From the NCBI GenBank assembly GCA_038065555.1, contig JBBTQS010000001.1, positions 741-64,740 of the forward strand: a DNA stretch of 64,000 nt, read 5' to 3'. Below the pieces are notes generated by a model. That model saw only the letters and a list, made by a program, of their open reading frames with translations, was not told the DNA's origin and did not search any database. Within the stretch, counting starts at the first letter, position 1, and the number at the start of each line of letters is the position of its first letter. A program made the translations under genes and the position numbers. Positions 8,100 to 34,128 of this stretch are shown here, in pieces. Source of the DNA: Patescibacteria group bacterium (lineage in GTDB: Bacteria; Patescibacteriota; Patescibacteriia; Magasanikbacterales; JBBTQS01).

Positions 8100-8708
8100 A
8101 TGGATGAACAGAAACCATACACTCCTTACGAGCCTCCGCAGAGCCCCAATGGCGCTGCTGCGAGAATTGTGATTACCGAGCTCATTAAGATTGTCTGTGT
8201 AGTCGCAATTGTCGTGTGGTTGGTACAGTATTTCCTCTTCCGACCTTTCACCGTGAAGGGCGCGAGCATGGAGCCTAATTACGAGACGCGACAGTATTTG
8301 ATTATTGACAAGGTGACGTATCGATTCAACGAGCCACAGCGTGGAGATGTGGTTGTCTTGCGTCATAACGAGGACATTCGTGAGTATTTCCTCAAGCGTG
8401 TTGTCGCACTTCCTGGCGAGCGCATTCGTATTCAGCATGGCAAGGTGACAATCTACGATGGTGCACACCCTGATGGGGTGATTCTTGATGAACATGCATA
8501 CTTGGATCCGGCGATCTCGACCAATGGCGAGCTCATTATGACCATGGGGTCAGATGAATATTTTGTCCTGGGCGACAATCGTCCCGTGAGTCAGGACTCT
8601 CGTATTATTGGTCCGGTCAAACGCGCAGATATTATTGGACGTGTATGGCTTCGCGGATGGCCGCTTGACAAATTCGGTCGAATTGACCACCCTCTCTATA
8701 ACTTTTAA
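8100..8708 (+). CDS. lepB: Signal peptidase I (S26 family)
   Basis: One N-terminal TM segment (IVCVVAIVVWLVQYFLF). Contains the catalytic Ser motif GASMEP and the GDNR box, plus RIIGPV. The annotated ORF 7842.. begins with a TTG-started leader overlapping the end of the giant gene; the first ATG after the giant gene's stop is at 8100. Confidence 0.85.
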   Translation: MDEQKPYTPYEPPQSPNGAAARIVITELIKIVCVVAIVVWLVQYFLFRPFTVKGASMEPNYETRQYLIIDKVTYRFNEPQRGDVVVLRHNEDIREYFLKRVVALPGERIRIQHGKVTIYDGAHPDGVILDEHAYLDPAISTNGELIMTMGSDEYFVLGDNRPVSQDSRIIGPVKRADIIGRVWLRGWPLDKFGRIDHPLYNF

Positions 8709-10409: not shown

Positions 10410-10853
10410 ATGGCACTCCTCTTGCAGATCGAAACCGATATTGTTGCAGCGATGCGCGCAAAAAGTGAACAGGAACTCTCGACACTTCGCCTGATGAAGA
10501 CCTCACTCAAGAATCGCGAGATTGAATTGCGTGCGGCAGGCAAAGAACTCACCGACGAGGAAGCGATGAAGACACTCAAGACACAGGTGAAGCAATTGAA
10601 GGATGCGCAGAGTGAGTATGCAGCCGCAGGCCGCGCTGATTTGGCAGCACAAGCAACAACGGAGATTGCGCTTGTGCAAAAGTATCTTCCAGAGGAGCTG
10701 TCTGATGAAGCGATTCGTGGTATAATCTCAGAGGTGATCGCTGCAACCGCAACACCATCGATCGCAACATGTATGGGGCCAGTCATGGCTCGTACTGCAG
10801 GGCGAGCTGATGGTGCGCGAGTGCGCACACTCCTTGAGCAACTCCTCGCATGA
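10410..10853 (+). CDS. GatB/YqeY domain-containing protein
   Basis: MALLLQIETDIVAAMRAKSEQELSTLRLMKTSLKNREIEL...LVQKYLPEELSDEAIRGII resembles the YqeY / GatB C-terminal domain family. ATG at 10410. Confidence 0.75.
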   Translation: MALLLQIETDIVAAMRAKSEQELSTLRLMKTSLKNREIELRAAGKELTDEEAMKTLKTQVKQLKDAQSEYAAAGRADLAAQATTEIALVQKYLPEELSDEAIRGIISEVIAATATPSIATCMGPVMARTAGRADGARVRTLLEQLLA

Positions 10854-12727
10854 ATTCTATGCATCGCCTTCGTTCAGTGCTTTCCACGGGCCTCCTTGTT
10901 GTAGGTCTCGTGTTTCTTTTTTTACCAGATCCAACGCTCGCACAAATTGATACACAGCTCACAGGATTTCAAGAGGCAACAGGATTAGGGAATACAGATA
11001 TTCGCGTGACGATCGCGAATATTGTGCGCGTGATTCTCGGGTTCCTAGGTATCATCGCTATTTTGCTTGTGCTCTACGGTGGATTCCTGTGGATGACGGC
11101 GGCAGGGAATGAGGATCAAATCGGCAAAGCAAAGAAAGTACTCATCAATGCAGGTATTGGTTTGCTCATCATCATGTCCGCGTTCGCTATTACGCAATTT
11201 GTGCTCACGAAGTTGCAAGAGGCGACAGGTACTGATCTTCTAGGCGGCGGTGTGGGATCCGCGGGGGCAGGTGGAGGATTCCGGAGCTCTGCAGCATTGG
11301 GAACAACGATCGAATCGCACTATCCAGAACGCAATGAGAAGAATGTCCCACGCAACGCGCCTATTGTTATTACGTTCAAGATCGCAGTAGATCCTGCGTC
11401 GATCATGACGCTTGCGAAGGACAAGACAACGGCACTGGGCACTCCGCAGGATGCTGGTGCAGGATTGCCACCGAAGTATGATGATCTCAAAACAGACGTC
11501 ATTCGCATCTATCCAGTCACAGGCGCACTCAAGGACAAGAAGATCGAGGAGAAGTCTGTTGCAGCATTTGTATCCATGACTCCTGATCAGAAGACGTTCA
11601 TGTTCGAGCCAGTGGTGTTGCTCGGTTCGAGTGCAGAGCAGACCGAGTATCGTGTAGAGCTCTCAGGCGCGATCATGAACAGCAAGGGCAAACCACTTTT
11701 TGGCAATACAAAGAATCCATACGATTGGAACTTCACAGTTTCGACGCTTGTGGATAACACGCCACCAAAGGTGACTGGTGCTTTCCCAGCCATGAGCACC
11801 ACCAAAGACACTCCACGCAACATCGCAGTGATGATCAACTTCAACGAGCCTATTTTCCCAATCGCGGCTTCGGGCAAGGTTGCAGATGGGTTCAACAATC
11901 TCGTTGTTGGTGAAGTACAAGGAGGAAACACGATCAAGCCAACACTTGGAACCTTCCGAATCACGAACAATTACCGCACGATTGAATTCCAAGCAGACGA
12001 CGCGAGCAATTCGTGTGGCAAGAACACGTGTGGCAAAGAGATTTATTGCCTTCCAGGACCTGCACAGATGCAAGTACTTGCGCGCGCTGCAGAGCTGAAG
12101 TCTCCAGGGAGCACGGATCCAGCAGCAAAGATTAATTTGCTCGCATCTCCTGCAACGCTTGGACTCACGGGTGTTGTGGATATGGCGAAGAATTCGCTCG
12201 ATGGCGGTGGACTCAACGCTGCAAATGCAGATGGCAAGGCGCAAGGACCTACTGCGGACAACTTCTACTTCTTGTTCCGCACCTCTGGGGAGAAGGACGT
12301 TATTATTCCACGCATTCTCTCTGCAGATCCAGGCATTCTCAAGGATGGGGTAGCTGTGGATGCACAGCCCAAGATTCAGTTCAGTAAGCCGATGCTCTAC
12401 AGCACATTTAGTGATGTGATGTTGTACGCTGATCCTGTGAGCAATGGTGTTGGATTCTCTAAGAATTTCACCGAATCTGCTATGGGTGAGGACAATCCAG
12501 CGAGCAAGTTCTACGACACGCAAAGTGCGGTGACCCTCTACCACGGAACTGCATTTGCACCAGAGGCCAAATATTCTCCACACCTTCCATCGACCATCAT
12601 GGATGCAGCATACAATTGTATGTATCCAGCGGTGGACACCATGGGGTGTAAGGATACGGACGCAAGCAAGCCGTGGTGCTGCAACGGTAATGCGTCTGCG
12701 AGTGCGTGTATTCCATCAGGATCCTAG
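10850..12727 (+). CDS. Surface protein with N-terminal TrbC/VirB2-like (T4SS pilin-like) domain and Ig-like extracellular region
   Basis: Signal peptide (MNSMHRLRSVLSTGLLVVGLVFLFLPDPTLAQ). Pilin-like module LGFLGIIAILLVLYGGFLWMTAAGNEDQIGKAKKVLINAGIGLLIIMSAFAITQFVL with two TM helices. An extracellular domain of about 480 aa follows, with a Cys-rich C-terminus. The start overlaps the yqeY stop (ATGA). Confidence 0.85.
   Translation: MNSMHRLRSVLSTGLLVVGLVFLFLPDPTLAQIDTQLTGFQEATGLGNTDIRVTIANIVRVILGFLGIIAILLVLYGGFLWMTAAGNEDQIGKAKKVLINAGIGLLIIMSAFAITQFVLTKLQEATGTDLLGGGVGSAGAGGGFRSSAALGTTIESHYPERNEKNVPRNAPIVITFKIAVDPASIMTLAKDKTTALGTPQDAGAGLPPKYDDLKTDVIRIYPVTGALKDKKIEEKSVAAFVSMTPDQKTFMFEPVVLLGSSAEQTEYRVELSGAIMNSKGKPLFGNTKNPYDWNFTVSTLVDNTPPKVTGAFPAMSTTKDTPRNIAVMINFNEPIFPIAASGKVADGFNNLVVGEVQGGNTIKPTLGTFRITNNYRTIEFQADDASNSCGKNTCGKEIYCLPGPAQMQVLARAAELKSPGSTDPAAKINLLASPATLGLTGVVDMAKNSLDGGGLNAANADGKAQGPTADNFYFLFRTSGEKDVIIPRILSADPGILKDGVAVDAQPKIQFSKPMLYSTFSDVMLYADPVSNGVGFSKNFTESAMGEDNPASKFYDTQSAVTLYHGTAFAPEAKYSPHLPSTIMDAAYNCMYPAVDTMGCKDTDASKPWCCNGNASASACIPSGS
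10946..11232 (+). repeat. Paralogous pilin-domain module, copy 1 (about 78% nt identity to 12836..13122)
   Basis: Runs of identical nucleotides, e.g. gtgctctacggYggattcctStggatgacggc, ctcatcaatgcaggtat, attacgcaatttgtgct. Confidence 0.7.
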
Positions 12728-12739
12728 TCTCCGACTTCT

Positions 12740-15700
12740 ATGCTTCGATCATTTTTCCGTCAACTCGCATTCCTCGGTATAGCCGCGACATTGGTCGCGG
12801 CAACTGCCGTTTTCACCGAGCCAACTGCAGTGTATGCGCAGGTGGACACTGAGCTGACCAACTTCCAGGAGTCTACGGGGTTAGGTAACACCGACATTCG
12901 CGTTACAATTGGTAATGTGGTGCGTGTAGTACTCGGATTCCTCGGTATTATTGCAGTGTGTCTCGTGCTCTACGGCGGATTCCTCTGGATGACGGCTGCG
13001 GGAAATGAGGACCAGGTAGCGAGTGCGAAGAAGGTGCTCATCAATGCAGGTATCGGACTGGTTATTATCATGTCCTCATTTGCGATTACGCAATTTGTGC
13101 TTTCGAATTTGCAAGAAGCTACGGGAACTGGGACAGGATCTGGTTCGAGTGATGGTATCGGGGGTTCTGGTGGCTCTGGCGGATCGGGGAGTGGCTCGGG
13201 TGGACTCAAATCGTTTGTCGTTCGTTCTATCAGCCCTCGCGAGACGCTGCCGAACAAGAACGTCACCTTGCATATTGTTTTTTCAGAAAATGTTGCAAAT
13301 ACGAATCTCGAGAAGAGCATCACGGTTCGCAAGAATGGTGAGACGACACTCGTTCCAGTGACGGTGAATGCGCAGGGATCCAGAGTAACCGTGAAGGCAA
13401 CAACGCCGTGTGCTGAAGCACGTGGATCATTCTGCTTTGACGGTGACACGCAGTACACAATTGAAATCGCTGGGGGCAAAGATGGTGTGCAAAGCAGCAG
13501 TGGCAAGGCCCTTCTTTGTGGCGTAGGAAATGAGTGTAACGCGCGTTTCAAAACCGGAAATGCGGTTGATACCCAAGCACCAACGGTTACCATCACCTCA
13601 CCAACAGGCGGCGCACTTGTAGCACAGGCACCTGCAACCAACATTCAGGCGCTGGTGGGCGATGATCTCGGTATTTCGTTAGTAGAATTCATGGTGGATG
13701 GAACGGTTGTCGACAGCAAGGCCGTAGTTGCAATGCAGTCATTGCCAGTAACCGTGAGCAGTAATGCGTGGGACGCAAGTGCACTCGCACTCAACTCCAG
13801 TCACACCATTACAGTGCGTGTCTACGATGTAAATGATCACAACACGCTTTCGTCATCTGTTACCGTTCGCATCGTGCCATCATATTGCTTTGATGGTCAG
13901 CAAACACCGAACACTGATGAAATTGGTCGCGATTGCAGCCCTAAGGGCGGTGCATGTGGACAGTGTGATGGTGGCTGTACTGACAACACGCAGTGCGCAA
14001 GCGGTACGTGTGCAGTTCCTGCTGCAGGTGGCGACAAACAATGTCTCAATCTCCCGACGATCACAGGTGTGAGCCCAGGAAATGGCGGAGAAGGACAGTG
14101 GGTCACAGTACAGGGCAAATTTTTTGGAAATTCTGGAACAGTGAGTTTCTTGAACCCCGATGGTTCGGCAGCAAAAATTGTTGCTCCGCTTGCACAGTGT
14201 ACAGGCGGGAGTTCTGCATGGACTGACCGCGCCATTGTCCTCGAAGTTCCGAAGGGGCTGACTCCAGGAACTGCGTATCCAATTCTCGTAGAGACTTCAG
14301 CATCATCCGATGCGACCAATGATGATCGTGGACCGAAGTTTGACGGCGTGTTCATGGTCAAGGAACAGTCGGGTCCTACGCCAGGAATTTGTTCGATCAC
14401 TCCAGCATCGGGCAAAGCAGGTTCGACCGTGATGATCCATGGCAAGAATTTCCCTGCAGATCAGGCAACAATGAAATTGCGATTCGGTGGAGTAGAAGGA
14501 ACGCTCGCACCACGTCAGCAGCAGACAACATTCGCAAGTGGTCAGGTTCCTAACGTTGCTCCGGGTACGTATGCAACGGATTTCGTTGTTGGTGGTGTAG
14601 CGAGTAACGCGGTTCCATTCACCGTGAGTGGCGATGGAGCAAAGCCTGCACCAAGTATTATTTCGTTGAGTTTGGACAAGGGTGCGGTGAGACAGTACAT
14701 CACCATTAAGGGAAGTAATTTCGGTGAGTTCCAGAATTTGATCAAGTTCATTCGTCTCAATGACCAACTCGTGCCAACAGACGAAGTGACCTACGGTGAT
14801 TTCAGTTTTCCAAAACAGTGTGCGACGGTTGGTACGTGGAGTGACGCGTCTGTTGTCGTGAAGGTGCCACAGGTTGTGGATGGTAAGTATCATATAGTCG
14901 TTGTGCGCTCAGATAGCGACAACGACGTGAGCAACAATGAGAGTAATCGCGTTGTATTCACAGTGAATCGTGATCCACTCACGCCAGGTTTGTGTGCACT
15001 TGTTCCAGATAACGGACCAACAGGTCTTGCGGTTTCGCTCTACGGTGATGGATTTGGTGCTACTCCTGGAGCCGTTCTCTTCCAGAAAGACAGTATCTAT
15101 AATGGCGTTGCATCTCGTTGGTCGCAGAGTACTGTCGGTGCAGCAGTGCCTTCTTCTGCTACAACAGGCGAAGTCGTAGTACGCTCGGATGCTGGTACAA
15201 GGAGCAACCCACAGATTTTCACGGTCCAGAACTGTAACCAAAAGCCAGGGGTGTGTGGTGGGAACGAACAGTGCTGTGGCAATGGTGCATGTATTCCGCG
15301 CACCGACGCATCCACAGGCAAGGCACTCTCGTGTACGTCATACAACGTTCCAGAAGCCAGCTATACATTCTCATTCTACACAGGCAAGGGAGACTTCGAT
15401 CCGAATAATTATCCACCAGCAGTTGTTGAGGAGTGTGTGGGTGGCAAACTCCCATCTCCAACGCCATGGATCAAGCATCCAGGTGGCGATGGTGCGTGCG
15501 TGAATGCGCTTCTTGGTGTGAAGTTCACGATTCCACTTGACCAGGCGACGCTCACGTACGATCGTGGTCGCAACTCGACAGTCTTGTTGTTCGCGTGTAA
15601 GGACGCAGCATGTGCTGAGGTGGAGGATGCGCCAGTTGCTATCGATCCAACGACATTCAATTACAGCGATCTTGCTGACAGCGATGGTTCGAAGAACAGC

Positions 15701-18700
15701 ATTCAGAGTTACTTGAGCTTTGCGCCCAAGTCACCACTCACGCCACGCACAACCTACATGGTAGTGCTGACAGACAAGATCACAGGTCAGATGAACGGAA
15801 TGTCTATGGTGCCAAACCCTGCGAAGTGTGGTGGCACTGCAGCAGCGTCTTTTGGTGCGTACTGCTATACGTTCAAGGTTTCGGATACTGGACTCTCATG
15901 TACACTCGGTGCAGTAGATGTTTCACCAGCGAAGTTCAATGTCGGTGATCCAAACATGATTTCGGAGAGTAGTAAATATGCATTGTCACCTGTACCATTC
16001 TGGGAAGTCGCAGAGGACGGAACCAAGACCAAGAAGTTCGGTCCACTCGAGTGGTCAGCACTGGGTATTGCAAAGAACTCCAAGTGTATTCTTGTGAACG
16101 CGTGTGGTGCAGATTCGAGCTGGACATGGGCGAGCCAACATACTGATGTTGGTGTGCCTTCTGGTGTTCCATCTGGCGCACAGTGCAAGCGGTATATGAA
16201 GGTAACAGGTGAGAGCGCAAAGACAGTTTCGGAGACTGGTGCTGTAAGTGTTGTTCCAACAGAGGTCACGGCAACGGAGAACACAAGCAAGCTCGCAGAC
16301 AAATCACTCTTCACCGTCAACTACGGAGCACCAACAGTGCTCGAGCAGTGTGGCGGAACCATTCAGAGCCCATCTCCATGGGACAAGCGCCAGGGTGGTA
16401 CTAATGTGTGTGTTAACGCGATCGTGAACATCGTGTTCTCACAGCGCATGGACCAGTCGTCATTTGCTGGCAACCCCGTTGAGATCCGCAAGTGTACTGG
16501 TACTGGAGCAAATCCATGTGCAACAACGAGTGAGCCGCTCTCAACAGTAGCAACATTCAAGACCAAGGACGATCAGCACGATGGACTCTCTGTAGCACTT
16601 GTTGGCAATCAGTTTTTCGACAAAGCAACAACATATCGTGTTGGCGTTCGTTCGACGCTCAAGGGTGCAACGGGAGTGCAAATGGAACAGCGCCCAGGAT
16701 GTAATCCAGGCGAGTCCTATTGCTATAGTTTCCGCACACGAGACGACGACAAGGCGTGTGAAGTAGACAAGGTGCAAGTGGCTCCTGATACGCAATCCAC
16801 CTACGCACTTGGATTAGTGCGCGACAAGAAAGGTGTGGCTGTGCCTTACGAGGCAGAAGCTGTTTCGTCTGATTCCTGTGTACTGCTCAACGCAAACGCA
16901 TACCAGTGGAACTGGGCTGCACAAGCGCCATACGCTGCTGTGTACGCAGTTGCAGAACAAAAAACATACACCACGCTCACCAACAGCGGTCCTTCGCAGC
17001 AAATGTGGGCACAGTTGCCAACCACTGGTCGCGCACCAGCAGAAATTCAAGTCGCGCTTGCTGGGAGCACCAAAGTTGCCAACAGCACACTTGCTATCAA
17101 TCTCTTGCCTCCAACAATTTTGAGCAATGAGCCTTCTTGCACAAGCGCATGTTCCAACGTGCAGATCAGCGCGACATTCAGTCAAGAAATGGACACAGCG
17201 TCATTTGGCTTGGGAACAGCGACACCTTCTGTTGCAGTGCTCAAGTGTACAAATGAATCCTGCTTGTTCCCAACTGACGCCGCTGGTGCGCTCACAGCAG
17301 AAGCGTTTGCTGCACAGATTCCACTGCAACTCGAGCCACAATCTGGTGTGTATGATGATCTTACGACGCAGACAGGAACCTCATATTTGATGGCACTCGC
17401 ACATGAGACACTACTTCCAAATACGTATTATCGTGCAGTTGTTCGCGTGGGTGATAAGGGTGTATTTACGAGCGATACCAAATCGACAATCGCTCTCACA
17501 TCACTCAATGAATCGCGCCGCTATCCAGCAGGAATGGCTGCGTATTACTCATGGACATTCAAGACACGTCCAGATGGTAGTGTTTGTACGGTAGCAAACG
17601 CAGAACTTCGTCCGAAGGAAACAGTAGTGCAGGCCTCGGGTCTCATCAGTGAAGTGGCAGTGTTTGCGAAGAGTGCTGCTGATGTGTGCAGCGCTGGCGG
17701 TCAGACACTTCAGGCAAGCGATTACTCGTGGCAGTGGAACATTGCTAATACTTCTGTTGCGCAATTCCTCAACGGCACAGCAGCTGACACTGCAGACGCA
17801 ACCGCAGGCGGCGCATGTACTGCACGCTGTGTTGCGCGCGGAACCGTTGCGGCAGGAACACCAGTATGTGGTAACAGTGTGAAGGAGTCTGGCGAATCAT
17901 GTGATGACAGTAATGCACTCTCCGGTGATGGCTGCAGCAACCGATGTCTTGTAGAACCTTCGGTGCGCATTCAGCAAGGAGGAACGTGTGGTAACAACAA
18001 GGTAGAGTCTGGTGAGTTGTGTGATGGTCAGCCTGGATGTAACCAAGGAACGTGTACATGGATGGGAGCATCTGCGGGGCTTGCGGTGTGTGGCAACGGA
18101 GATATTGGCGCAGGTGAGGAATGTGATGGTGGCTTGTATTGCACCAGCTCCTGTCTCTTGAAGGGGTCTACTCCAGGTGCGGCAGTGTGTGGTGACGGCA
18201 ACCTTCAGCCTGGTGAGGATGCATATTGTGAAGAATTCTGGCACGCAAATGGTCCTGGCGCTACAAGTTCCGCATGTACCAATACGTGTGTGTTGCGCGG
18301 CGGACTCACCGAGGAGAACAAGCAAGGCGGAGCGTTTTGTGGCAATGGCACAGTCGAGCCACAAACAGGCGAAGCGTGTGATGATGGCAATGCGCTCTCC
18401 GGCGATGGATGCTCGCTCAAGTGTTTGCACGAAGGTGCAGCAACCACATATGCGCAACCATCTGTCTGTGGCAACGGCTCGGCAGAAACCGGCGAATCAC
18501 CAAGTTGTGAGATCGTAGGAGCCAATGCAACAGCGGGGGATGGTAAGATTGATGCAACACAGTTCATCCGCGGACTTTCTGGTGGGGCTGTCAGCAAGAA
18601 TAATCGTCGCGAAACTGCAATTACCGCTGCGGTAGCACAGACAAATGCAGTAGCCGAAGGAACCTACGCAATTCAGTGTGGTTACACTGCTGATTCACAG

Positions 18701-21700
18701 TGCCCAGCAGGCGCTGGAGTTGGTGCTGATTCCTGCTGCTACGCACGTCCACGCGTACTCACAGAGACAGCATTACCTGCTTCTGGTTCGGCTGCAGTAT
18801 GTCGCAACGCGCTCATCACGATTGAGTTCAACGAGCAAATTGATCCTGCGACAGTGAACACGTCGACCGTTCGACTCTTTGTGCAGAGTGCGACAGCAGA
18901 CGCGTGTACAAAGAATGGCGGAACGGTTATTGCACAATCACTCATCAATCCAGATGATCCATGGTACCGACGTGCGTGGTTTACCATGGTCAATGAAGTA
19001 CGTGGATGGTTCGATGCAGCGCCTGCGTACGCAGCAGTGAATTGCGGATATTATTTCAACGCTGAGCTCGCAGACTTGCAGAACATTGGCAGTGGCAGCG
19101 TCGGTGTACGCTCCAAGCTCTTCATCACGCCAACTGAGCTGTTGGGTGAGAAGCAAGTGTATACTGTCGAAATCACACAAGCTGTTCGCAACATGATGGG
19201 TGTGCGTATCGCTGAGGCGTACACATGGAAGTTCACTACAGGCAAGACATTGTGCACACTTGCTGCTGTTGACGTAGAACCAGCAACGCACGTGTTCACA
19301 AGCACTGGTCCTTCGAGTAATGCAAATATGATTGCAACTGCATACGCGAAGCAGGGAAATGATTTCACGCCAATTGTTTCGACAAGCAAGTATGCATGGT
19401 CGTGGGCGTGGAAGGTGACTCATGCTGATCGCGCTGTGATCACTTCCCAGAACAACACGAAGGCAGTAGCAGCTCCTGGACCAAAGCGTGGTGAAACCAC
19501 GATTCGCGCAACTGCAACAGTAACAACAGACTTGATTAGTCCTGCGCCAACAACTGGCGGCTCGTTGCAGGGATTTGGTGCCCTGGTGAATGCAAATTGT
19601 GATGTCCCATGGCCAGATGCAACAACGAAGATTGGCAATAATCCAGTTTCGTTCCCATACGCAGATCGAGACATGCACTTCTCGCTGTGGTACTGCCGTG
19701 GCAATTTGCCAACGACAGATACTCCAGCTCCGAAGGTGTTGCCAGCATTCCAGCTCTATCGTCCAACAGAAAAGGTCACAGCAGGAACAGAACTCTTGTC
19801 CTCACTCTTGTTGCGCCATCCAAGTGCAGGGGACGCTATTGGGTTGCGCGTGTACAGCAACGTAGAAGGATTGTCTCCAATGGACTGGTACGCAAAGCAA
19901 GGATTCAGTGGCAAGCCATCAGCAACAACGCTTGCAGGATACGAAGCAATTCAAGATGGTACGACGTATTACATTGCATTCGTGAATGTGAGCAATCCTA
20001 CTGGCAGTTACGTATGGCCTGAGACGATACATCCGCGCAATCGCAATTCGAAGTACGTCAACATCTTGGCGATTTCGCACAATCAGGACGCAACTCCAGA
20101 GACAAAAGCAGTGTTCGCACAGCTCCTCGAGAACCTCAAGTTCTCAACTAATATCGAGGCGAAGTGGAATCAGGGTGTGTGTGCTGTGGTGGGCGCAAAT
20201 GGTGCCGTTGGTCAGACAACATTCGGTACTAATCCTGCACGCGAGATCTCGTGCTCCTCACGCCTCGACTGTGTGAACAACAAGGAAAAGATTGCAGTCC
20301 CTGCAGCAGTAGAATGTCTTGCATTCAACGAGCAGTTGAGCCGAGACGCTGTGCGTTGGTCTGATCTGCGTGAAATTCAAGGTGCCGTCACTGGATTCAA
20401 GGCGCAGTATGGATCCGCACCAACCCTTGGCCAAGGAACGTATGTTCCATCCATGGCGGTGAGTGCGTGGGATTCGTGGAACACGGTGTTTGGAAAGCAA
20501 ATTGGCGATTCTTCGCTTCCTCAGGATCCAATCAACGCGTTCGCTGCTGGGTGTGAAGGTGACGCTGCAACCTGTTGGAATGGCGCGACGTCCAAGTACA
20601 TGTGTACTGCAGGTTCGCATGTGTATTCCTACACAACATCGAAGAATGCAGCAGGGTTCAAGCTCGGTGTCGATTTCGAAACCATCAAGGATTCTTCGCA
20701 GCGTTGGAATAACGTTGTTGCAAGTGCGTACCAGGTGTACGGCAATTGCACGGGTGTTCCAATGGCAGCAGGCGGCATCTGTGGAGATGGAATTCTCAAT
20801 CTCACTGAGCAGTGTGAAGCGGGACAAATGATCGGAGCAGTGGGTGGTATTACAGATCCAAATGCGCAGACGTGTACGGTGTCTGACGCAAAGGGTAATA
20901 CATACCCAGGTGCGTATATCTACAGCTGTCCGAAGTCCTGTCAGTACTATTCTGCAGCAGAACTCAAGAGTAACAAGATTGCGTGTCAGCCACTGGGTAG
21001 CTGTGGTGATGGTGTGATGAACGGCAACGAAATGTGTGACGATGGATCACTCAACGGATCATACAACCACTGCGCGAGTGATTGCCGCTCCAAGATGAGT
21101 GCGGCAGGTCGTTGTGGTGATGGTGTTCTCCAAAAAGAGCAAGGTGAAATGTGTGATGTTACACGCTGTGAATACACGAATGTACAGTGCTCGACGACAG
21201 AAACGAGCAACTCGTGTCCAGTGGTGATGGCACATATGTCGAGTACTATTTATCCAGGGATGGTGTACTTGCGGTACGGCGCCAATGGCAAGGCACAGGG
21301 TGAAACGCTCAAATATTTCTCGAAGTCCACTGCGACAAAAGATTTCCCTGTCGGCACACAGTTGAAATGCCTAGGTGCACAGACAACATATGCACCGACT
21401 CAGGCCAAGTCTTGTAACTGGGACTGTCTCTCCTATGGACCGTACTGTGGAGATGGTGTGAAGAATGGAACGGAGAAGTGTGATGGAACACAAATGTCTG
21501 ATGAAGCGTGTACAACTGCACAAGGATTGCCTGGAACCGTTGCGTACACCTGTACCGCGTCATGCTCTGCGAGGAGCAAGACGTGCGTAGCGAAGCCACT
21601 TGCTGGTGGCGCATCGAGCGCTCCAGTGTGTGGTGATGGCGTGAGACAGGGGGATGAAGGTTGTGATAGTGGTACGAACAATGGTGATGGATGTACGGCG

Positions 21701-21910
21701 CAATACGGAGGTTCGTGTCAGTTCTGCTCCAAGCAGTGCAAGATCCAAACACAATCTGGTGGATCATGTGGTGATGGCAAGCGTCAGATCGCCGAGCAGT
21801 GTGACGGAACAGATTTGGGTAGCAAGACCTGTAAGGATTTTGTGAGCAGTTCGTCGAAGAAGCTCACGTGTAATACCAACTGCACGTACAATCAGAATGC
21901 ATGTAAGTAA
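12740..21910 (+). CDS. Giant (3056 aa) surface protein: T4SS pilin-like N-terminal domain, Gly/Ser linker, IPT/TIG-like domains, multiple Myxococcus-type Cys-rich repeats
   Basis: The N-terminal 120 aa are a near-identical paralog of the 10850 gene product (VLYGGFLWMTAAGNEDQVASAKKVLINAGIGLVIIMSSFAITQFVL). A GSGSSDGIGGSGGSGGSG linker follows. IPT/TIG-like modules are present (ITGVSPGNGGEGQWVTVQGKFFG..). At least 12 repeats of the form CG(N/D)G..E.CD(D/G)(GN)..SGDGCS..C occur at about aa 1715-1900 and 2690-3050. Confidence 0.9.
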   Translation: MLRSFFRQLAFLGIAATLVAATAVFTEPTAVYAQVDTELTNFQESTGLGNTDIRVTIGNVVRVVLGFLGIIAVCLVLYGGFLWMTAAGNEDQVASAKKVLINAGIGLVIIMSSFAITQFVLSNLQEATGTGTGSGSSDGIGGSGGSGGSGSGSGGLKSFVVRSISPRETLPNKNVTLHIVFSENVANTNLEKSITVRKNGETTLVPVTVNAQGSRVTVKATTPCAEARGSFCFDGDTQYTIEIAGGKDGVQSSSGKALLCGVGNECNARFKTGNAVDTQAPTVTITSPTGGALVAQAPATNIQALVGDDLGISLVEFMVDGTVVDSKAVVAMQSLPVTVSSNAWDASALALNSSHTITVRVYDVNDHNTLSSSVTVRIVPSYCFDGQQTPNTDEIGRDCSPKGGACGQCDGGCTDNTQCASGTCAVPAAGGDKQCLNLPTITGVSPGNGGEGQWVTVQGKFFGNSGTVSFLNPDGSAAKIVAPLAQCTGGSSAWTDRAIVLEVPKGLTPGTAYPILVETSASSDATNDDRGPKFDGVFMVKEQSGPTPGICSITPASGKAGSTVMIHGKNFPADQATMKLRFGGVEGTLAPRQQQTTFASGQVPNVAPGTYATDFVVGGVASNAVPFTVSGDGAKPAPSIISLSLDKGAVRQYITIKGSNFGEFQNLIKFIRLNDQLVPTDEVTYGDFSFPKQCATVGTWSDASVVVKVPQVVDGKYHIVVVRSDSDNDVSNNESNRVVFTVNRDPLTPGLCALVPDNGPTGLAVSLYGDGFGATPGAVLFQKDSIYNGVASRWSQSTVGAAVPSSATTGEVVVRSDAGTRSNPQIFTVQNCNQKPGVCGGNEQCCGNGACIPRTDASTGKALSCTSYNVPEASYTFSFYTGKGDFDPNNYPPAVVEECVGGKLPSPTPWIKHPGGDGACVNALLGVKFTIPLDQATLTYDRGRNSTVLLFACKDAACAEVEDAPVAIDPTTFNYSDLADSDGSKNSIQSYLSFAPKSPLTPRTTYMVVLTDKITGQMNGMSMVPNPAKCGGTAAASFGAYCYTFKVSDTGLSCTLGAVDVSPAKFNVGDPNMISESSKYALSPVPFWEVAEDGTKTKKFGPLEWSALGIAKNSKCILVNACGADSSWTWASQHTDVGVPSGVPSGAQCKRYMKVTGESAKTVSETGAVSVVPTEVTATENTSKLADKSLFTVNYGAPTVLEQCGGTIQSPSPWDKRQGGTNVCVNAIVNIVFSQRMDQSSFAGNPVEIRKCTGTGANPCATTSEPLSTVATFKTKDDQHDGLSVALVGNQFFDKATTYRVGVRSTLKGATGVQMEQRPGCNPGESYCYSFRTRDDDKACEVDKVQVAPDTQSTYALGLVRDKKGVAVPYEAEAVSSDSCVLLNANAYQWNWAAQAPYAAVYAVAEQKTYTTLTNSGPSQQMWAQLPTTGRAPAEIQVALAGSTKVANSTLAINLLPPTILSNEPSCTSACSNVQISATFSQEMDTASFGLGTATPSVAVLKCTNESCLFPTDAAGALTAEAFAAQIPLQLEPQSGVYDDLTTQTGTSYLMALAHETLLPNTYYRAVVRVGDKGVFTSDTKSTIALTSLNESRRYPAGMAAYYSWTFKTRPDGSVCTVANAELRPKETVVQASGLISEVAVFAKSAADVCSAGGQTLQASDYSWQWNIANTSVAQFLNGTAADTADATAGGACTARCVARGTVAAGTPVCGNSVKESGESCDDSNALSGDGCSNRCLVEPSVRIQQGGTCGNNKVESGELCDGQPGCNQGTCTWMGASAGLAVCGNGDIGAGEECDGGLYCTSSCLLKGSTPGAAVCGDGNLQPGEDAYCEEFWHANGPGATSSACTNTCVLRGGLTEENKQGGAFCGNGTVEPQTGEACDDGNALSGDGCSLKCLHEGAATTYAQPSVCGNGSAETGESPSCEIVGANATAGDGKIDATQFIRGLSGGAVSKNNRRETAITAAVAQTNAVAEGTYAIQCGYTADSQCPAGAGVGADSCCYARPRVLTETALPASGSAAVCRNALITIEFNEQIDPATVNTSTVRLFVQSATADACTKNGGTVIAQSLINPDDPWYRRAWFTMVNEVRGWFDAAPAYAAVNCGYYFNAELADLQNIGSGSVGVRSKLFITPTELLGEKQVYTVEITQAVRNMMGVRIAEAYTWKFTTGKTLCTLAAVDVEPATHVFTSTGPSSNANMIATAYAKQGNDFTPIVSTSKYAWSWAWKVTHADRAVITSQNNTKAVAAPGPKRGETTIRATATVTTDLISPAPTTGGSLQGFGALVNANCDVPWPDATTKIGNNPVSFPYADRDMHFSLWYCRGNLPTTDTPAPKVLPAFQLYRPTEKVTAGTELLSSLLLRHPSAGDAIGLRVYSNVEGLSPMDWYAKQGFSGKPSATTLAGYEAIQDGTTYYIAFVNVSNPTGSYVWPETIHPRNRNSKYVNILAISHNQDATPETKAVFAQLLENLKFSTNIEAKWNQGVCAVVGANGAVGQTTFGTNPAREISCSSRLDCVNNKEKIAVPAAVECLAFNEQLSRDAVRWSDLREIQGAVTGFKAQYGSAPTLGQGTYVPSMAVSAWDSWNTVFGKQIGDSSLPQDPINAFAAGCEGDAATCWNGATSKYMCTAGSHVYSYTTSKNAAGFKLGVDFETIKDSSQRWNNVVASAYQVYGNCTGVPMAAGGICGDGILNLTEQCEAGQMIGAVGGITDPNAQTCTVSDAKGNTYPGAYIYSCPKSCQYYSAAELKSNKIACQPLGSCGDGVMNGNEMCDDGSLNGSYNHCASDCRSKMSAAGRCGDGVLQKEQGEMCDVTRCEYTNVQCSTTETSNSCPVVMAHMSSTIYPGMVYLRYGANGKAQGETLKYFSKSTATKDFPVGTQLKCLGAQTTYAPTQAKSCNWDCLSYGPYCGDGVKNGTEKCDGTQMSDEACTTAQGLPGTVAYTCTASCSARSKTCVAKPLAGGASSAPVCGDGVRQGDEGCDSGTNNGDGCTAQYGGSCQFCSKQCKIQTQSGGSCGDGKRQIAEQCDGTDLGSKTCKDFVSSSSKKLTCNTNCTYNQNACK
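12836..13122 (+). repeat. Paralogous pilin-domain module, copy 2
   Basis: Direct comparison with 10946..11232; both copies are in the same orientation. Confidence 0.7.
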
Positions 21911-21926: not shown

Positions 21927-21951
21927 AGTGCCATCACGTTTAACGCGTCGT

Positions 21952-22677
21952 ATGTTCGATACAACACCTAATGCGCAGCAGCCTGGCACTGTGCCACAGC
22001 CTGAGAATGCGCCAGCGACTTTTGAGAGTGCGGAGTTCGGTGCTACTGCGATTCAGGCAGGCAAGCTCAAGCCTATCAGTGAAAAATCTGAAAAGGATAT
22101 GGGTGTACCAGGGGATGATGTTGGGGCATACGAATTTCAGGCGCCGCATGCGCAGAACAAATGGTTCTTGATCACGTTTGCCATTCTCGGAGTTGCAGCA
22201 CTCGGAGGACTTTCGTGGTGGGCATACAATGCGTATACCGCATCGATGGACACCGCAGTTCCAGCTGCAGCAACTGATGTGGTTCCTGCCGAAGAGGCGG
22301 TGGTTGAGGAGGAGGTAAGTCCTTATGATGATGTGATTGCTCCTACTACCACGACAACACCAGTACTCACAAGTCCTGTAGCCACGAGTACTCCTTCGCA
22401 AGAACCAAGTGAGGTAATTGCGGCGACAGATATTGACAATGATGGTCTCTCAGATGTAGACGAAGTACGCGATGGATCAGATCCACGCGACGCGGACTCA
22501 GATGATGACGGACTTACAGATGCACAAGAAGTACTTCAGTACGGTACGAGCCCAACGAATCCAGATTCAGACGGGGATACGTACTCTGACGGTACAGAAG
22601 TGAAGAACGGATACAATCCTAAGGGTAATGGAATGCTCCCTGCTGCTGCAACGAGCACTGCTCCGTTTGCACAATAG
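21952..22677 (+). CDS. Single-pass membrane protein with Asp-rich Ca-binding-like repeats
   Basis: Cytoplasmic N-terminus, one TM helix (WFLITFAILGVAALGGLSWWAY), a Thr/Pro-rich linker, then DIDNDGLSDVDE, DSDDDGLTDAQE and DSDGDTYSDGTE repeats of thrombospondin-type-3-like DxDxDG form. Confidence 0.7.
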   Translation: MFDTTPNAQQPGTVPQPENAPATFESAEFGATAIQAGKLKPISEKSEKDMGVPGDDVGAYEFQAPHAQNKWFLITFAILGVAALGGLSWWAYNAYTASMDTAVPAAATDVVPAEEAVVEEEVSPYDDVIAPTTTTTPVLTSPVATSTPSQEPSEVIAATDIDNDGLSDVDEVRDGSDPRDADSDDDGLTDAQEVLQYGTSPTNPDSDGDTYSDGTEVKNGYNPKGNGMLPAAATSTAPFAQ

Positions 22678-22692: not shown

Positions 22693-23919
22693 ATGTTTGG
22701 TTCCAAGCAATCACCAACGGGCCCAGCAACCTCATCCGAGATTCCGGATGAGTCGTTGCGCATCCATACCATCCCCAAGGCGTTCTATGGCAAAACCATC
22801 AGCGCTGCTGATGCTGCGCCAACTCCAGATCAGATGAATCCGCAGATGGGTGCAACGCCTCGCGTTGCTACTGCGCCAGTTGCTGCACAGGCGACGACAG
22901 CTGGGTCGGTTTTTGACACTCCAGGTCCTGGAGCTAGCGCGCAGATTGCACACGCACCGACACATGCATCAAAGATGAAAATCGTGTTGTGGAGTGGACT
23001 CGGTGTACTCGTGCTCGCAGTTGCAGGAACTGCAACGTGGATGTACACACGCACACCAGATCCATCACCGGTTATTGATGTGCCGCCAGTTGTGGTGCTG
23101 CAAGATACCGAAGATACAACCCCGCAGGACTCCATTACCACACCAACGAGCACCGTAGACATTGTGACGCCACCACCAGTAGATCCCGACATGTTGTTGG
23201 CAATCGCACCAGTGGGCGACACCATCGACTTCGACGGTGATGGACTCACAGACATCGAAGAAGAACTCTACAAAACAGACCCAGCCATTGCTGACACTGA
23301 TTTGGATACATTTACCGACGGTGTTGAGCTCACGAATTTGTTCGATCCACTTGTAGAAGCGCCTGCGATGCTCATGGAGTCACCCAATATTCAGCAGTAC
23401 ACCAATCCCGTGCACAACTACACCGTTGTTCACCCAAGTGACTGGTTGGCAGCTCCTGTTGATGAACGAACTAGTGATGAGCTCACATTCACATCTCTCA
23501 CCGGCGAGTTCGTGACAATCCAGTCATTCCCGCTGAAGGAGAACGAGCTATTTGTTTCGTGGTTTGCAGCGCACAATCAGTCATACCAGTACAGTGGTCT
23601 CACGTCATGGGCGAATCGTCGCGGGGTTACTGGTTGGTACGAGGCGTCGTTCATGCGATTCTATTTTGTGAATGCAAAAGGGGTGTATGTCATGGAGTAT
23701 CATCCTGGGATTCGTAATGCAGTCAACTTCCGTCGCAGTGTGCGTATGATGGCAGAGAGCTTTGCGTTCACTGAGGAGCTTATGGAAGGACCTGAAGAGG
23801 TCGTAGAGCCGGTGACAACTTCTACCCCAGCAACCACCACGACAACCACCACCACGAGTACTCCGTCTGCACCAGTACAGGAGGCGATCGAGCCGACCGC
23901 AACGTCCACCACACCTTGA
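22693..23919 (+). CDS. Single-pass membrane protein with Asp-rich repeats and C-terminal globular domain (paralog of preceding gene)
   Basis: Same N-terminal architecture as the preceding gene: TM helix KIVLWSGLGVLVLAVAGTATWMY, repeats DFDGDGLTDIEE and DTDLDTFTDGVE, then a soluble domain of about 150 aa and a poly-Thr tail. Confidence 0.7.
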   Translation: MFGSKQSPTGPATSSEIPDESLRIHTIPKAFYGKTISAADAAPTPDQMNPQMGATPRVATAPVAAQATTAGSVFDTPGPGASAQIAHAPTHASKMKIVLWSGLGVLVLAVAGTATWMYTRTPDPSPVIDVPPVVVLQDTEDTTPQDSITTPTSTVDIVTPPPVDPDMLLAIAPVGDTIDFDGDGLTDIEEELYKTDPAIADTDLDTFTDGVELTNLFDPLVEAPAMLMESPNIQQYTNPVHNYTVVHPSDWLAAPVDERTSDELTFTSLTGEFVTIQSFPLKENELFVSWFAAHNQSYQYSGLTSWANRRGVTGWYEASFMRFYFVNAKGVYVMEYHPGIRNAVNFRRSVRMMAESFAFTEELMEGPEEVVEPVTTSTPATTTTTTTTSTPSAPVQEAIEPTATSTTP

Positions 23920-32082: not shown

Positions 32083-32134
32083 ATTGGTTATCCACAGTGC
32101 GTGAACTAGTCTTTCGGTTTTGTTTCGGGTATAC

Positions 32135-34097: not shown

Positions 34098-34128
34098 AAA
34101 AGCCTTATTTTGTGCCTTCTCACAGCTC

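Follow-up and report, generated by a model that had tools for sequence, protein, structure and literature searches.

The 64-kb window analysed here, the whole stretch of DNA under study, comes from an uncultured ultra-small CPR/Patescibacteria bacterium and raises the question of why two adjacent genes, A and B, should begin with almost the same secretion-system pilin and continue into very large, different surface regions. Does the pilin part still enter a pilus, or has it become a membrane anchor? CPR/Patescibacteria depend on other cells, and we know of no cultured member of class ABY1, across which the pair proved to be conserved; A and B are concrete, testable candidates for contact-making parts in this class. 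In the only CPR species amenable to genetics, both the type IV secretion system (T4SS) and its array of pilins are essential, and a 2025 survey reported no adhesin associated with CPR T4SSs (PMC12102498). We regard the A-B pair as a good candidate for the attachment factor of this essential CPR secretion pilus.

Both open reading frames (625 and 3056 aa) lie exactly where an earlier note on this DNA had placed them (Table 1), with the start of gene A overlapping the yqeY stop by 4 nt. Proteins of this type are currently annotated only as "Ig-like/IPT-TIG domain-containing". A tblastn search of the window found no third copy of the pilin module.

Table 1. Features of the A-B locus, in positions of the 64-kb window
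Feature	Position	Strand	Description and basis
Signal peptidase I (S26) gene	8100..8705	+	Four genes 5' of A; GASMEP and GDNR..S.DSR motifs in translation
Gene A	10850..12727	+	625-aa candidate modular pilin: pilin head, linker, three Ig-like beta-sandwich domains, Cys-rich tail
Gene A signal peptide	10850..10942	+	aa 1-31; predicted SPase I site TLA↓Q, from hydropathy and alignment
Gene A mature VirB2-like pilin module	10943..11233	+	aa 32-128; PF18895, alignment, AF2 hairpin
Gene A Gly-rich flexible linker	11234..11290	+	aa ~129-147; pLDDT below 50 for residues 126-146
Gene A ectodomain	11291..12724	+	Three Big_5-type beta-sandwich domains (AF2) and C-terminal Cys-rich tail
Gene B	12740..21910	+	3056-aa candidate modular pilin, 12 nt 3' of gene A
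Gene B signal peptide	12740..12838	+	aa 1-33; predicted site VYA↓Q
Gene B mature VirB2-like pilin module	12839..13129	+	aa 34-130; PF18895
Gene B Gly/Ser linker	13130..13210	+	TGTGSGSSDGIGGSGGSGGSGSGSGG; read from sequence
Gene B proximal ectodomain	13211..17863	+	Big_5, Big_7, Cys knot, at least 3 IPT/TIG domains, further Big_5-like modules
Gene B first cluster of six Cys-rich acidic repeats	17864..18514	+	CGxG..E.CD; TIGR02232 / DUF4215
Gene B distal Big_5 modules and region of ~360 aa	18515..20779	+	aa ~2290-2650 without family match
Gene B C-terminal cluster of six Cys-rich repeats	20780..21907	+	Sequence repeats
Single-pass membrane protein with bacterial TSP3 (Ca2+-binding) repeats	21928..22677	+	PF18884, 44 bits
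Second membrane protein	22693..23919	+	Weak TSP3 repeat and C-terminal domain without family

The two modules share 80 identities over 100 residues with no gaps (BLASTP, E 2e-48; A 26-125 vs. B 28-127), which confirms the near-identical N-termini described in the earlier note. Outside the module, just a weak Big_5-level similarity was detected (BLASTP, E 0.008). At the DNA level the modules are ~78% identical, with pS 0.73, dN 0.136 and dN/dS 0.05. Because synonymous sites are saturated and dN/dS is this low, the A and B heads are old paralogues under strong purifying selection. The same saturation ruled out a recent duplication or conversion of the heads.

The note had called the module a TrbC/VirB2-type pilin, of which the T4SS-type pilin part stood and the TrbC part found no support. 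The CPR VirB2-like family PF18895 (T4SS_pilin; gathering cutoff 26.6 bits) matched both whole proteins above its cutoff (A, 34.8 bits at aa 50-118; B, 31.1 bits) and the isolated modules at 37.8 and 36.8 bits, with the matches running over positions 4-71 of a 71-position profile. TrbC itself (PF04956) gave no match in either protein at E <= 1 in the Pfam scan. Judged by these profile scores, the module belongs to the CPR-specific sister family PF18895. Some close stand-alone relatives carry PF04956 matches too (P0025 and P0091, and faintly L008). The NCBIfam model NF045849 (Mbov_0395 family, Mycoplasma ICE pilin-like conjugal transfer protein) scored 36.1 and 36.4 bits (E ~4e-9), below its curated cutoff of 40 bits, which on these scores makes the modules its relatives and not equivalogs. 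Among 177,635 PDB sequences, the module profile matched only Agrobacterium tumefaciens VirB2, weakly (E 0.36 and 0.76). The alignment is in register over the mature pilin and sets K93, a candidate for binding the phospholipid headgroup, opposite the essential luminal Arg91; in the same basic loop A94 is invariant and K95 nearly so. Neither protein has the class III prepilin-peptidase leader (G↓[FM]xxxE) in its first 60 residues.

Every part of a stand-alone pilin is present in the module, from the signal peptide and mature N-terminus through TM1, the basic loop and TM2 to an "ATG" end. In gene A, the order is an outer N-terminal segment with a TD motif, TM1, LYGGFLWMTAAG, the basic loop GKAKK, TM2, and an ATGT end. 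Hydropathy gave exactly three hydrophobic segments per protein (the signal peptide, TM1 at ~58-82 and TM2 at ~98-120) and none elsewhere, and the AF2 model contains a confident helical hairpin (H51-83 and H88-126, pLDDT above 90); both agree with the signal peptide and two transmembrane helices proposed earlier. A fold search with the hairpin alone did not discriminate. The predicted leader site of gene A aligned with ASA↓Q and ANA↓Q sites of stand-alone pilins, and A31 is invariant across 32 A-family sequences. In a column-by-column alignment that took in 24 stand-alone pilins, the residues invariant in those pilins and kept in A and B were D50, G78, F79, W81, M82, T83, G86, A94 and G104. The outer N-terminal segment, which a plain anchor would not need, is also kept in both. 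An alternative anchor was looked for in A and B as a further transmembrane segment, a C-terminal LPXTG or a lipobox, and none was found. LPXTG-like motifs are missing from A; in B they occur only internally, as LPTTG (1426) and LPASG (2012), and the C-terminus lacks a hydrophobic segment.

Stand-alone pilins stop 2-8 residues past the "ATG" motif, where the linkers of A and B start. Such a junction could be an artefact, in which gene calling or assembly fused a short pilin gene to a downstream surface-protein gene; stand-alone pilins and tandem pilin arrays occur widely, and separate genes can become joined in a metagenome assembly. However, the conservation data refute this reading, and we give it practically no credence. 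The open reading frames are uninterrupted in 78 independent loci from many studies with the linker in frame everywhere, recur in three independent assemblies of the window sequence, and stay intact at 100%, 98%, 83%, 79%, 57% and 32% identity levels.

The same junction would also suit a pilin head that serves as an export or targeting handle, with the ectodomain cleaved near the ATG motif or linker and then released or passed to the wall, leaving a short pilin. Stand-alone pilins have their natural C-terminus exactly at the fusion point, the Gly/Ser linker that comes next is disordered, and the RP4 TrbC pilin undergoes C-terminal processing. A signal-peptidase-family gene is also conserved 5' of the pair (64 of 68 loci), with Peptidase_S26 at the equivalent position in orthologous loci. 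Still, this enzyme is most simply a housekeeping LepB, and it is likely the one that removes the pilin leaders of A and B. Moreover, neither a protease nor a conserved cleavage motif was identified for the linker, whose sequence differs between A and B, and there was no sign of a wall-attachment signal. We consider the export-handle reading very improbable.

Beyond the linkers, a domain scan bore out the ectodomain content claimed earlier, namely Ig-like domains with a Cys-rich tail in A, and IPT/TIG domains with about 12 Cys-rich repeats in B. Gene A matched Big_5 at 69 bits in four stretches (Pfam), which we take to be an S-layer (SbsA)-type Ig domain, and its AF2 model runs from the hairpin through a disordered linker to three Ig-like domains. 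For this ectodomain Foldseek returned only Ig/cadherin/CopC-like matches. It has invariant residues across the 32 A-family sequences and conserved cysteines at C389, C394, C400, C590, C610 and C620, with 5 Cys in the last 36 residues. Gene B has Big_5 in five stretches, Big_7, at least three TIG domains and 125 Cys, and its 12 "CGxG...E.CD" repeats fall in two clusters (TIGR02232 at 90 bits; DUF4215).

Across class ABY1, gene A was followed by gene B in 78 of 82 non-redundant loci, 80 of which came from species-representative genomes of Uhr-, Falkow- and Magasanikbacteria. The operon reads SPase I-HisRS-S21-YqeY before the pair and leads on to YbeY-FtsA-FtsZ, near cell-division genes, and the housekeeping neighbours were conserved in 57-67 of 68 loci. 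The TSP3 membrane protein is a conserved third gene, found at the same position in five related loci (L001-L004 and L009), and a TSP3-motif open reading frame lay 3' of gene B in 10 of the 16 loci with enough downstream sequence. The second membrane protein was conserved in close relatives and L009. Gene B itself is colinear with 41 distant orthologues at 20-39% identity, its distal part is conserved across orthologues (20-36%), and the pilin module is its slowest-evolving part (53% identity vs. 20-39% elsewhere).

This stability bears on the polymorphic-adhesin logic suggested in the earlier note. Under such a model, recombination would join an unchanging anchor to diverse, rapidly evolving ectodomains and so alter attachment specificity. 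The window does hold two different ectodomains behind one head, gene B carries a lineage-specific insertion at residues ~950-1300, and other PF18895-headed giants have other domain sets (Laminin_G_3, LVIVD, Big_9, Flg_new_2). However, each locus has just two copies, each a stable orthologue family at one syntenic site, and over class-level distances the ectodomains stay colinear and keep invariant residues. The window contained no cassettes, repeats or silent copies, and the saturated synonymous sites between the heads rule out ongoing recombination. On these comparisons of sequence, the ectodomains are two fixed, ancient orthologue families and the pair is not polymorphic; we therefore think the adhesin-switching interpretation very improbable.

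The heads change together. Mature modules of A and B were 58% identical within the same genome and 48% between different genomes (A-A, 49%; B-B, 52%), and the best-matching B for a genome's A was its own B in 24 of 78 genomes. The A module of the window is 87% identical to the B and 85% to the A of one related locus (L001). In the five-gene arrays, one pilin (P0002/P0005) shares 58-69% identity with the A and B modules over the mature region, vs. 28-50% for its array neighbours, and the closest stand-alone pilins to the gene A module (61-65%) are located in five-gene arrays. Within a genome, the two modules vary in step, and both are similar to one particular stand-alone pilin. Old gene conversion plus constraint, instead of co-assembly, could also account for the within-genome similarity. 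A short pilin lies between A and B in 5 of 80 loci, and the pilin forms the N-terminal head of a larger protein in ~10 of the best 150 representatives. Natural chains of 2-16 concatenated pilin modules also exist, indicating that C-terminal extension of a PF18895 pilin is tolerated.

No T4SS Pfam family was found in any scanned ORF of the window, in agreement with the note on VirB4, VirB6 and VirD4, and none within 10 kb of the pair in five related loci with gene-by-gene Pfam annotation; the 80 contig loci were screened for the pilin module and the window's neighbouring genes only. T4SS machinery is found in ABY1 genomes (PMC12102498), and Tables S1/S3 of that study place VirB4 elsewhere in 2 of 3 cross-matched carrier genomes (L026, with VirB4, TrsD and T4CPs; L064, with VirB4). 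The third carrier, L036, an 863-kb MAG, was scored VirB4-negative in the same data.

With its place among housekeeping genes and no T4SS genes close by, the pair would fit a constitutive part of the envelope, and a strong rival explanation builds on this. Here the pilin hairpin would have been co-opted as a two-helix membrane anchor that never polymerises, and A, B and the TSP3 proteins would form a constitutive, T4SS-independent structure such as fibrils, an S-layer-like coat or wall-spanning spacers. In its favour are the synteny beside cell-division genes, the conserved and colinear rather than fast-evolving ectodomains, the S-layer-type Big_5 domains, the Ca2+-binding TSP3 partners typical of surface structures, the lack of nearby T4SS genes, and the VirB4-negative carrier. 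The reading also fits the fact that VirB2 pilins normally sit in the membrane before assembly. Yet a plain anchor needs hydrophobicity alone, and here the entire pilin is held under a dN/dS of 0.05, with the outer segment, the WMTAxG motif and the basic loop all kept and the module the best-conserved part of B. In addition, within lineages the two modules vary along with each other and with one stand-alone pilin, and short pilins are sometimes embedded in the operon. Together, the non-polymerising anchor and its envelope structure seem to us quite possible, if somewhat doubtful.

We tentatively favour, at a little short of an even chance, that A and B are modular VirB2-type pilins displaying giant ectodomains, and that they probably enter the CPR T4SS pilus as minor or tip subunits. 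Each is built as a complete PF18895 pilin, a flexible Gly/Ser linker, and a large disulfide-rich Ig-like ectodomain. Signal peptidase I would remove the Sec leader at A-x-A↓Q, TM1 would run from outside to inside with the GKAKK loop in the cytoplasm, and TM2 would act as a signal-anchor exporting the whole C-terminal region; with this topology, both pilin ends and the ectodomain would lie outside the cell. In assembled VirB2 pili (T-pilus), both termini face outwards and the lumen is lined by the basic loop, and a C-terminal fusion is therefore compatible with incorporation. The T4SS might then extract A and B from the membrane along with stand-alone pilins as rare or tip (first-incorporated) subunits, whose Ig-like stalks (~480 aa in A, ~2900 aa in B) and Cys-rich ends may contact a partner cell or surface, with the downstream TSP3 Ca2+-binding proteins as possible accessory factors. 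Against this modular-pilin reading, we know of no VirB2-type pilus with a subunit bearing a large fused domain, and of no precedent for membrane extraction of a subunit with a 2900-aa ectodomain. The absence of nearby T4SS genes, VirB4-negative L036, and the weak VirB2 match (E 0.36) were also counted against it.

In its fullest form, which we think rather unlikely, these would be the first modular VirB2-type pilins: the ABY1 T4SS pilus would be primed or tipped by A and B, the heads co-evolving with the major pilin and the 480-aa and 2900-aa Ig/Cys-rich arms contacting the host or partner as the missing adhesin of the essential CPR T4SS. The searched literature on CPR T4SS, CPR pilins and giant proteins contained no description of a pilin-giant ectodomain fusion, nor any mention of the T4SS-pilin fold as an N-terminal anchor of very large CPR proteins, which the earlier note had given as reported. 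If this fullest form is true, it would be a new way of building a conjugative-type pilus; if the proteins are only anchored, a pilin fold has been reused as a membrane anchor for core envelope proteins.

The nearest known relatives are the CPR PF18895 pilins, including the essential Southlakia epibionticum array, which share the HMM family, leader, hairpin, WMTAxG motif, basic loop and phylum, and with A and B the arrangement as tandem paralogous genes. However, the known pilins have ~120-200 aa, within the ~100-200 aa usual for a small stand-alone protein of the family, whereas in A (625 aa) and B (3056 aa) the pilin is just the first ~130 aa. Array paralogues average 25% identity, compared with 80% between the A and B heads, and are usually discussed near virB4, unlike the housekeeping location of the pair.

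The conjugative pilins VirB2, TrbC and TraA of diderm T4SSs (PF04956; T-pilus structures 8cue, 8fai, 8exh) likewise have a long leader cut before Gln and a hydrophobic two-helix hairpin; Arg91 of VirB2 aligns with the basic loop residue of the module, and the filament termini face outwards. By contrast, A and B lack a significant PF04956 match, reach VirB2 in the PDB only at E 0.36, and belong to a monoderm. Head-to-tail cyclisation is reported for TrbC and VirB2; the C-terminal ectodomains would make it impossible for A and B. We know of no VirB5-type tip protein in CPR. Among monoderm VirB2-like pilins (PrgF of pCF10; Mbov_0395, NF045849), the likeness lies in the sub-threshold but clear 36-bit match and in the kinship of the CPR T4SS with the monoderm MPF_FATA class. 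However, PrgF/Mbov_0395-type pilins are small proteins encoded on plasmids or ICEs, and they function in DNA transfer.

Earlier work on CPR has remarked on giant membrane proteins. PrgB-type conjugation adhesins and the giants of the CPR predator Vampirococcus resemble A and B as large, Ig-like, repeat-rich surface proteins proposed to act in cell-cell contact, but no pilin head has been described for them, and the LPXTG anchor of PrgB has no counterpart in A and B, which lack a sorting signal at the C-terminus. A parallel in design is found in modular type IV pilins (e.g. Streptococcus sanguinis PilB/PilC; large minor pilins of T4P and T2SS), in which a minor subunit joins a polymerisation module to a functional, adhesive one. 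The same logic is proposed for A and B, albeit in an unrelated superfamily, with a different machine, no class III leader or G↓F...E5 motif, and ectodomains 5-30 times larger. If A and B do sit in the filament, the modular pilin principle would extend from type IV to conjugative-type pili.

Genes A and B were found in the window as two co-directional open reading frames of the lengths that the earlier note had claimed, and their N-terminal modules proved as nearly identical as it had described. By BLASTP, the two proteins share one strong segment, in which residues 26-125 of A and 28-127 of B align ungapped with 80/100 identities (E 2e-48); elsewhere, any resemblance is no better than noise or is of the generic Big_5 kind. 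The DNA of the shared part is ~78% identical. Over the 100 aligned codons (Nei-Gojobori), pS is saturated at 0.73, dN is 0.136, and dN/dS is ~0.05, indicating at the codon level that the head similarity is kept by purifying selection on old paralogues and carries no trace of recent duplication or conversion. Recent gene conversion was ruled out as its source because synonymous sites are saturated; older, episodic homogenisation is possible. No third copy of the module was detected in the window by tblastn in all six frames. The window sequence was also matched in ENA assembly ERZ27247837 (contig k141_2348930). Co-transcription is suggested only by the spacing, a 4-nt overlap and gaps of 12-17 nt between genes. 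Promoter and terminator signals scanned over 7.8-27.2 kb were about as frequent as in shuffled controls, so that they are uninformative on operon structure.

Profile comparisons place the shared head in Pfam PF18895 ('T4SS_pilin'), the family of CPR VirB2-like pilins. The whole proteins scored 34.8 (A) and 31.1 bits (B) against a gathering threshold of 26.6, and the isolated 130-aa modules scored 37.8 and 36.8 bits over profile positions 4-71 of 71. TrbC (PF04956) gave no match at E <= 1 in A or B, so the earlier reading of a TrbC/VirB2-like pilin is supported through PF18895 and finds no support in PF04956 itself. The NCBIfam model 'Mbov_0395 pilin-like conjugal transfer protein' from a Mycoplasma ICE reached 36 bits (E ~4e-9), below its cutoff of 40. 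The head appears related to PF04956 and to this monoderm ICE pilin-like family, in neither of which its membership can be demonstrated. Alignment A2, which joins A and B with 24 stand-alone pilin relatives, gave a profile that matched only 2 of 177,635 distinct PDB sequences, both Agrobacterium VirB2 (8cue/8fai and 8exh); their E values (0.36 and 0.76) are not significant alone, but the matches keep their register along the entire mature pilin. The TD motif, the GKA/GRA loop, and helix 1 at its G.sWM end align with VirB2, placing K93 of A opposite the essential luminal Arg91 of VirB2.

Hydropathy (Kyte-Doolittle) identified exactly three hydrophobic segments per protein (leader, TM1, and TM2) and none in the remaining 500 (A) or 2900 (B) residues. 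The AF2 model of the module is a helical hairpin (H51-83 and H88-126, pLDDT >90), which agrees with the two-TM topology put forward earlier. In alignment A2, stand-alone pilins stop 2-8 residues past an 'ATG(T)' motif, and the disordered Gly/Ser linker of A and B begins where they end (residues 126-146 of A, pLDDT <50; 'TGTGSGSSDGIGGSGGSGGSGSGSGG' in B). By this alignment, the module is an entire pilin rather than a fragment. We consider it very probable that in both A and B a genuine pilin head displays an extracellular arm.

The arms contain the Ig-like, TIG, and Cys-rich elements that had been recognized from the sequence. Gene A has four Big_5 stretches (Pfam), and its AF2 model (pLDDT 81, pTM 0.71) shows a Cys-rich tail behind three beta-sandwich domains. 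When full-length A was compared with the PDB (Foldseek), only generic Ig, cadherin, and CopC-like folds were retrieved, with no enzymatic or specific ligand-binding homologue. Gene B has five Big_5 stretches, Big_7, at least three IPT/TIG domains, and 125 cysteines. Its twelve 'CGxG..E.CD' repeats (~12 had been claimed) form two clusters at aa ~1709-1925 and 2681-3056 and match TIGR02232 (90 bits) and DUF4215, and aa 2290-2650 (~360 aa) are without a family match. Neither protein has a catalytic domain, a C-terminal LPXTG, or a lipobox.

Full-length A belongs to a family of ~530-990 aa proteins with PF18895 and Big_5, found in Uhr-, Komeili-, Buchanan-, and Magasanikbacteria and unnamed Patescibacteria; one JGI record is already titled 'type IV secretion system pilin/Big-like domain-containing protein'. 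Loci at 83%, 52%, and 32% identity have the common order signal peptidase I-HisRS-S21-YqeY-A-B-TSP3-repeat protein(s), with a B of 2824-3271 aa that carries PF18895, Big_5, Big_7, and TIG. A species-level scan (one genome per GTDB species) yielded at least 590 related stretches, the best 80 of which are loci L011-L090; A and B were called with the module HMM and six-frame ORFs. In 78 of 82 non-redundant loci, including these best 80 of at least 590, A (530-760 aa) is directly followed by B and both are pilin-headed, while the downstream B is missing in 2 of the 82. An ORF-fusion artefact is excluded. Across the A-B loci, the length of B ranges from 1544 to >3557 aa. Among loci with enough flank, signal peptidase I (SPase I) lies upstream of A in 64/68, HisRS in 67/68, S21 in 66/68, and YqeY in 57/68. 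Of the 16 loci that extend far enough beyond B, 10 have a TSP3-motif ORF of 220-300 aa downstream of it. Over 41 distant orthologues, B is colinear (20-39% identity, 80-95% occupancy), with the pilin head as its best-conserved part (53% identity) and residues ~950-1300 as a lineage-specific insertion. Across 32 sequences of the A family, 37 positions are invariant; these include five cysteines and A31, which lies at the leader cleavage site.

Judged by these comparisons, A-B is an ancient, stable two-gene module of the CPR class named ABY1 in GTDB, which holds Uhr-, Falkow-, and Magasanikbacteria (assignments from Table S1 of PMC12102498), and the module probably spans three to four genes. The earlier note had instead proposed polymorphic adhesins, with a constant anchor and variable ectodomains. 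That reading is contradicted by the conserved A-B order, the colinearity of B, and the invariant residues of A, and we regard it as very unlikely.

Several loci showed further variation. In 5 of the 80 (L020, L025, L065, L085, and L086), an extra short pilin (123-165 aa) sits between A and B, and it is nearer to its own genome's B head (51-53%) than to the A head (37-43%). In L036, L059, L064, and L071, a short B (1544-2470 aa) is directly followed by another ORF of 890-1110 aa; the gene may be split in some lineages or broken by assembly errors or frameshifts. Many records, among them L011, L015, L016, L018-L020, and L022, are titled 'uncultured Gammaproteobacteria bacterium' (binchicken/SPIRE-style deposits) and one 'Candidatus Kapaibacterium sp.', titles that look wrong on a typically patescibacterial locus.

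To relate the head to ordinary pilins, we searched 1.84 billion representatives exhaustively with HMMER, and 65,426 proteins matched the module at E <= 1e-3. The length distribution comes from this search; a word-indexed module search gave short proteins only and missed a 98%-identical A orthologue. Three architectures make up the best 150 of the 65,426: pilins that stand alone (116-200 aa), chains that concatenate 2-16 pilin modules, and about ten proteins that start with a pilin and are of the type of A (613-627 aa) or of B (2573-3689 aa). Poly-pilins, in which one polypeptide joins 2 to 16 PF18895 hairpins, are common among the best-scoring proteins (P0218, 820 aa; P0244, 1775 aa; P0246, 1147 aa; P0223, 245 aa). 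By eye, eight TM1-loop-TM2 units clearly follow one another along the P0218 chain, and we know of no earlier description of a covalently concatenated VirB2-type pilin. When the B ectodomain alone was the query, PF18895 was present in 11 of 13 matches covering at least 38% of it, all with generic source names.

The stand-alone pilins closest to the window module (61-65% identity) lie in five-gene tandem arrays, where the third gene (P0002/P0005) is the only one similar to the heads of A and B (58-69%; array neighbours 28-50%). No virB4 was found within 10 kb of these arrays. Across 78 genomes, mean identity of the mature modules is 58% for A vs. B of the same genome, compared to 48% for A vs. 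B, 49% for A vs. A, and 52% for B vs. B of different genomes. The own-genome B is the best-matching B for A in 24 of the 78, where about one is expected by chance. The window's A head is 87% identical to the B head of its relative L001, 86% to the window B head, and 85% to the L001 A head, making the heads virtually interchangeable in this lineage. Taken with the saturated dS, this within-genome co-variation suggests either that the heads co-evolve under a common constraint specific to the lineage, or that they were homogenised in old episodes and have since been strongly constrained.

As the earlier note had stated for VirB4, VirB6, and VirD4, no T4SS family was found in any ORF of the 64-kb window, and relaxed Pfam scans of unannotated neighbours (g7, g11, g13, and others) detected no VirB6- or VirB8-like domains. 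A 2025 survey of 3,035 Patescibacteria genomes reported MPF_FATA-like T4SS in most classes, with ABY1 'well represented' and loci near comF, recG, and radA (PMC12102498). It lists PF18895 VirB2-like pilins in 1,948 assemblies, in arrays of 2-11 genes, detected 'no adhesins' with CPR T4SS, and makes no mention of fused pilins. Its tables cover three A-B carriers: Uhrbacteria GW2011_GWC2_41_11 (L026) has VirB4, TrsD, and two T4CP matches, Magasanikbacteria RIFOXYD1_FULL_40_23 (L064) has VirB4, and Uhrbacteria RIFCSPHIGHO2_01_FULL_63_20 (L036, 863 kb) does not. Table S3 has no 'VirB2' entry for GCA_000996355.1 (L026; A 625 aa, B 3418 aa); the survey may have overlooked pilin-headed giants or filtered them away.

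The lack of nearby T4SS genes fits the main rival explanation, in which the hairpin is a mere membrane anchor for constitutive envelope fibrils, as do the housekeeping synteny of the locus, ectodomains that are conserved rather than fast-evolving, and the TSP3 Ca2+-binding partner proteins. However, selection on the complete pilin is very strong and extends to parts that an anchor can do without, and we see the anchor as a serious possibility, though at less than an even chance. The same selection, along with the co-variation of the head with its partner head and one stand-alone pilin, favours incorporation into a pilus.

In the proposed mechanism, SPase I would cut the leaders, which end in A-x-A/Q (TLA/Q in A, VYA/Q in B; slash, predicted cut) as in stand-alone pilins and VirB2. 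TM1 would cross from outside to inside, the loop GNEDQIGKAKK would remain inside in line with the positive-inside rule, and TM2, after KAKK, would act as a signal-anchor exporting the remainder of the protein. The pilin termini and ectodomain would thus be extracellular, which fits the many cysteines of B. In the T-pilus structure, VirB2 has its termini on the outward face, with the basic loop lining the lumen, so a C-terminal extension would project from the filament; natural poly-pilin chains show that C-terminal continuation is tolerated by this pilin. The favoured reading makes A and B rare or tip subunits in a pilus of short pilins, with Ig/Cys-rich arms that would contact a partner cell or surface. 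We hold this whole chain tentatively, at slightly under an even chance. A pilin head that serves as a cleavable 'handle' is conceivable but unsupported, and we think it improbable.

Coordinates of the genes and regions discussed (window positions, except for the pilin arrays, which lie in loci L005, L007, and L008)
Feature	Position	Orientation or setting	Description
Giant ORF	1250-8029		2259 aa
Signal peptidase I gene	8100-8705	four genes upstream of A	
Gene A	10850..12727	co-directional with B	625 aa ORF
Gene B	12740..21910	co-directional with A	3056 aa ORF
First TSP3 protein	21928-22677	downstream of B	single-pass membrane protein
Second TSP3 protein	22693-23919	downstream of B	single-pass membrane protein
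LexA and polymerase pair	32120-34097		
Possible integrated element	34000-38000		
Cys-rich repeat protein	34139-35353		404 aa
tRNA-Asp gene	35658-35732		only tRNA gene
Glycosyltransferase cluster	38380-59585		~20 kb
Five-gene PF18895 pilin array, L005	8786-11395	downstream of NTP_transferase and SBP_bac_1 genes	
Five-gene PF18895 pilin arrays, L007 and L008	8749-11393	downstream of NTP_transferase and SBP_bac_1 genes	

The conserved SPase I gene probably encodes the housekeeping LepB. RP4 matures its pilin with a LepB-like peptidase, TraF, and by this analogy the linkage to A-B may not be accidental. Both TSP3 proteins carry bacterial thrombospondin-type-3 (Ca2+-binding) repeats, and the second has a C-terminal domain of ~150 aa without a family match. 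Besides Gly-rich repeats and two fn3 domains, the giant ORF includes an acidic low-complexity stretch, and its C-terminal region combines TM segments with DUF1416/CarboxypepD_reg-like domains; it is without a pilin head, and only the closest relatives (L001 and L002) were found to share it. The window otherwise contains housekeeping and cell-division genes, HtrA, pyruvate kinase, LexA, and DinB. LexA is directly followed by the Y-family (IMS/DinB) polymerase, and in this reduced genome the two make a compact pair of SOS type. Around tRNA-Asp, GC drops from 0.596 (34-36 kb) to 0.457 (36-38 kb), with a protein bearing Dicty_CTDC Cys-rich repeats on one side and several short ORFs without a family match past the tRNA; the region may be an integrated element. 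The ~20-kb cluster, a locus for surface glycans or protein glycosylation, combines glycosyltransferase (GT4, GT2, PMT_2-like) and sugar-nucleotide genes with those for a DegT aminotransferase, a methyltransferase, a flippase, epimerases/dehydratases, and a split transketolase; its products could modify the Thr/Ser-rich giant proteins.

The literature that could be searched covers CPR pilin arrays, highly expressed T4SS pilins, and giant CPR surface proteins, and in it we found no description of a pilin-headed giant CPR protein or of a conserved A-B pair. The domain combination occurs in automatic annotations, so the genes are already known to databases; the architecture, conservation, and implications of the pair appear undescribed so far. 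PF18895 pilins are habitually small, stand-alone, and linked to virB4, whereas A and B are giant fusions at a locus without that linkage. The nearest functional analogy is with the modular type IV pilins, an unrelated superfamily from which A and B also differ in having no class III prepilin leader.
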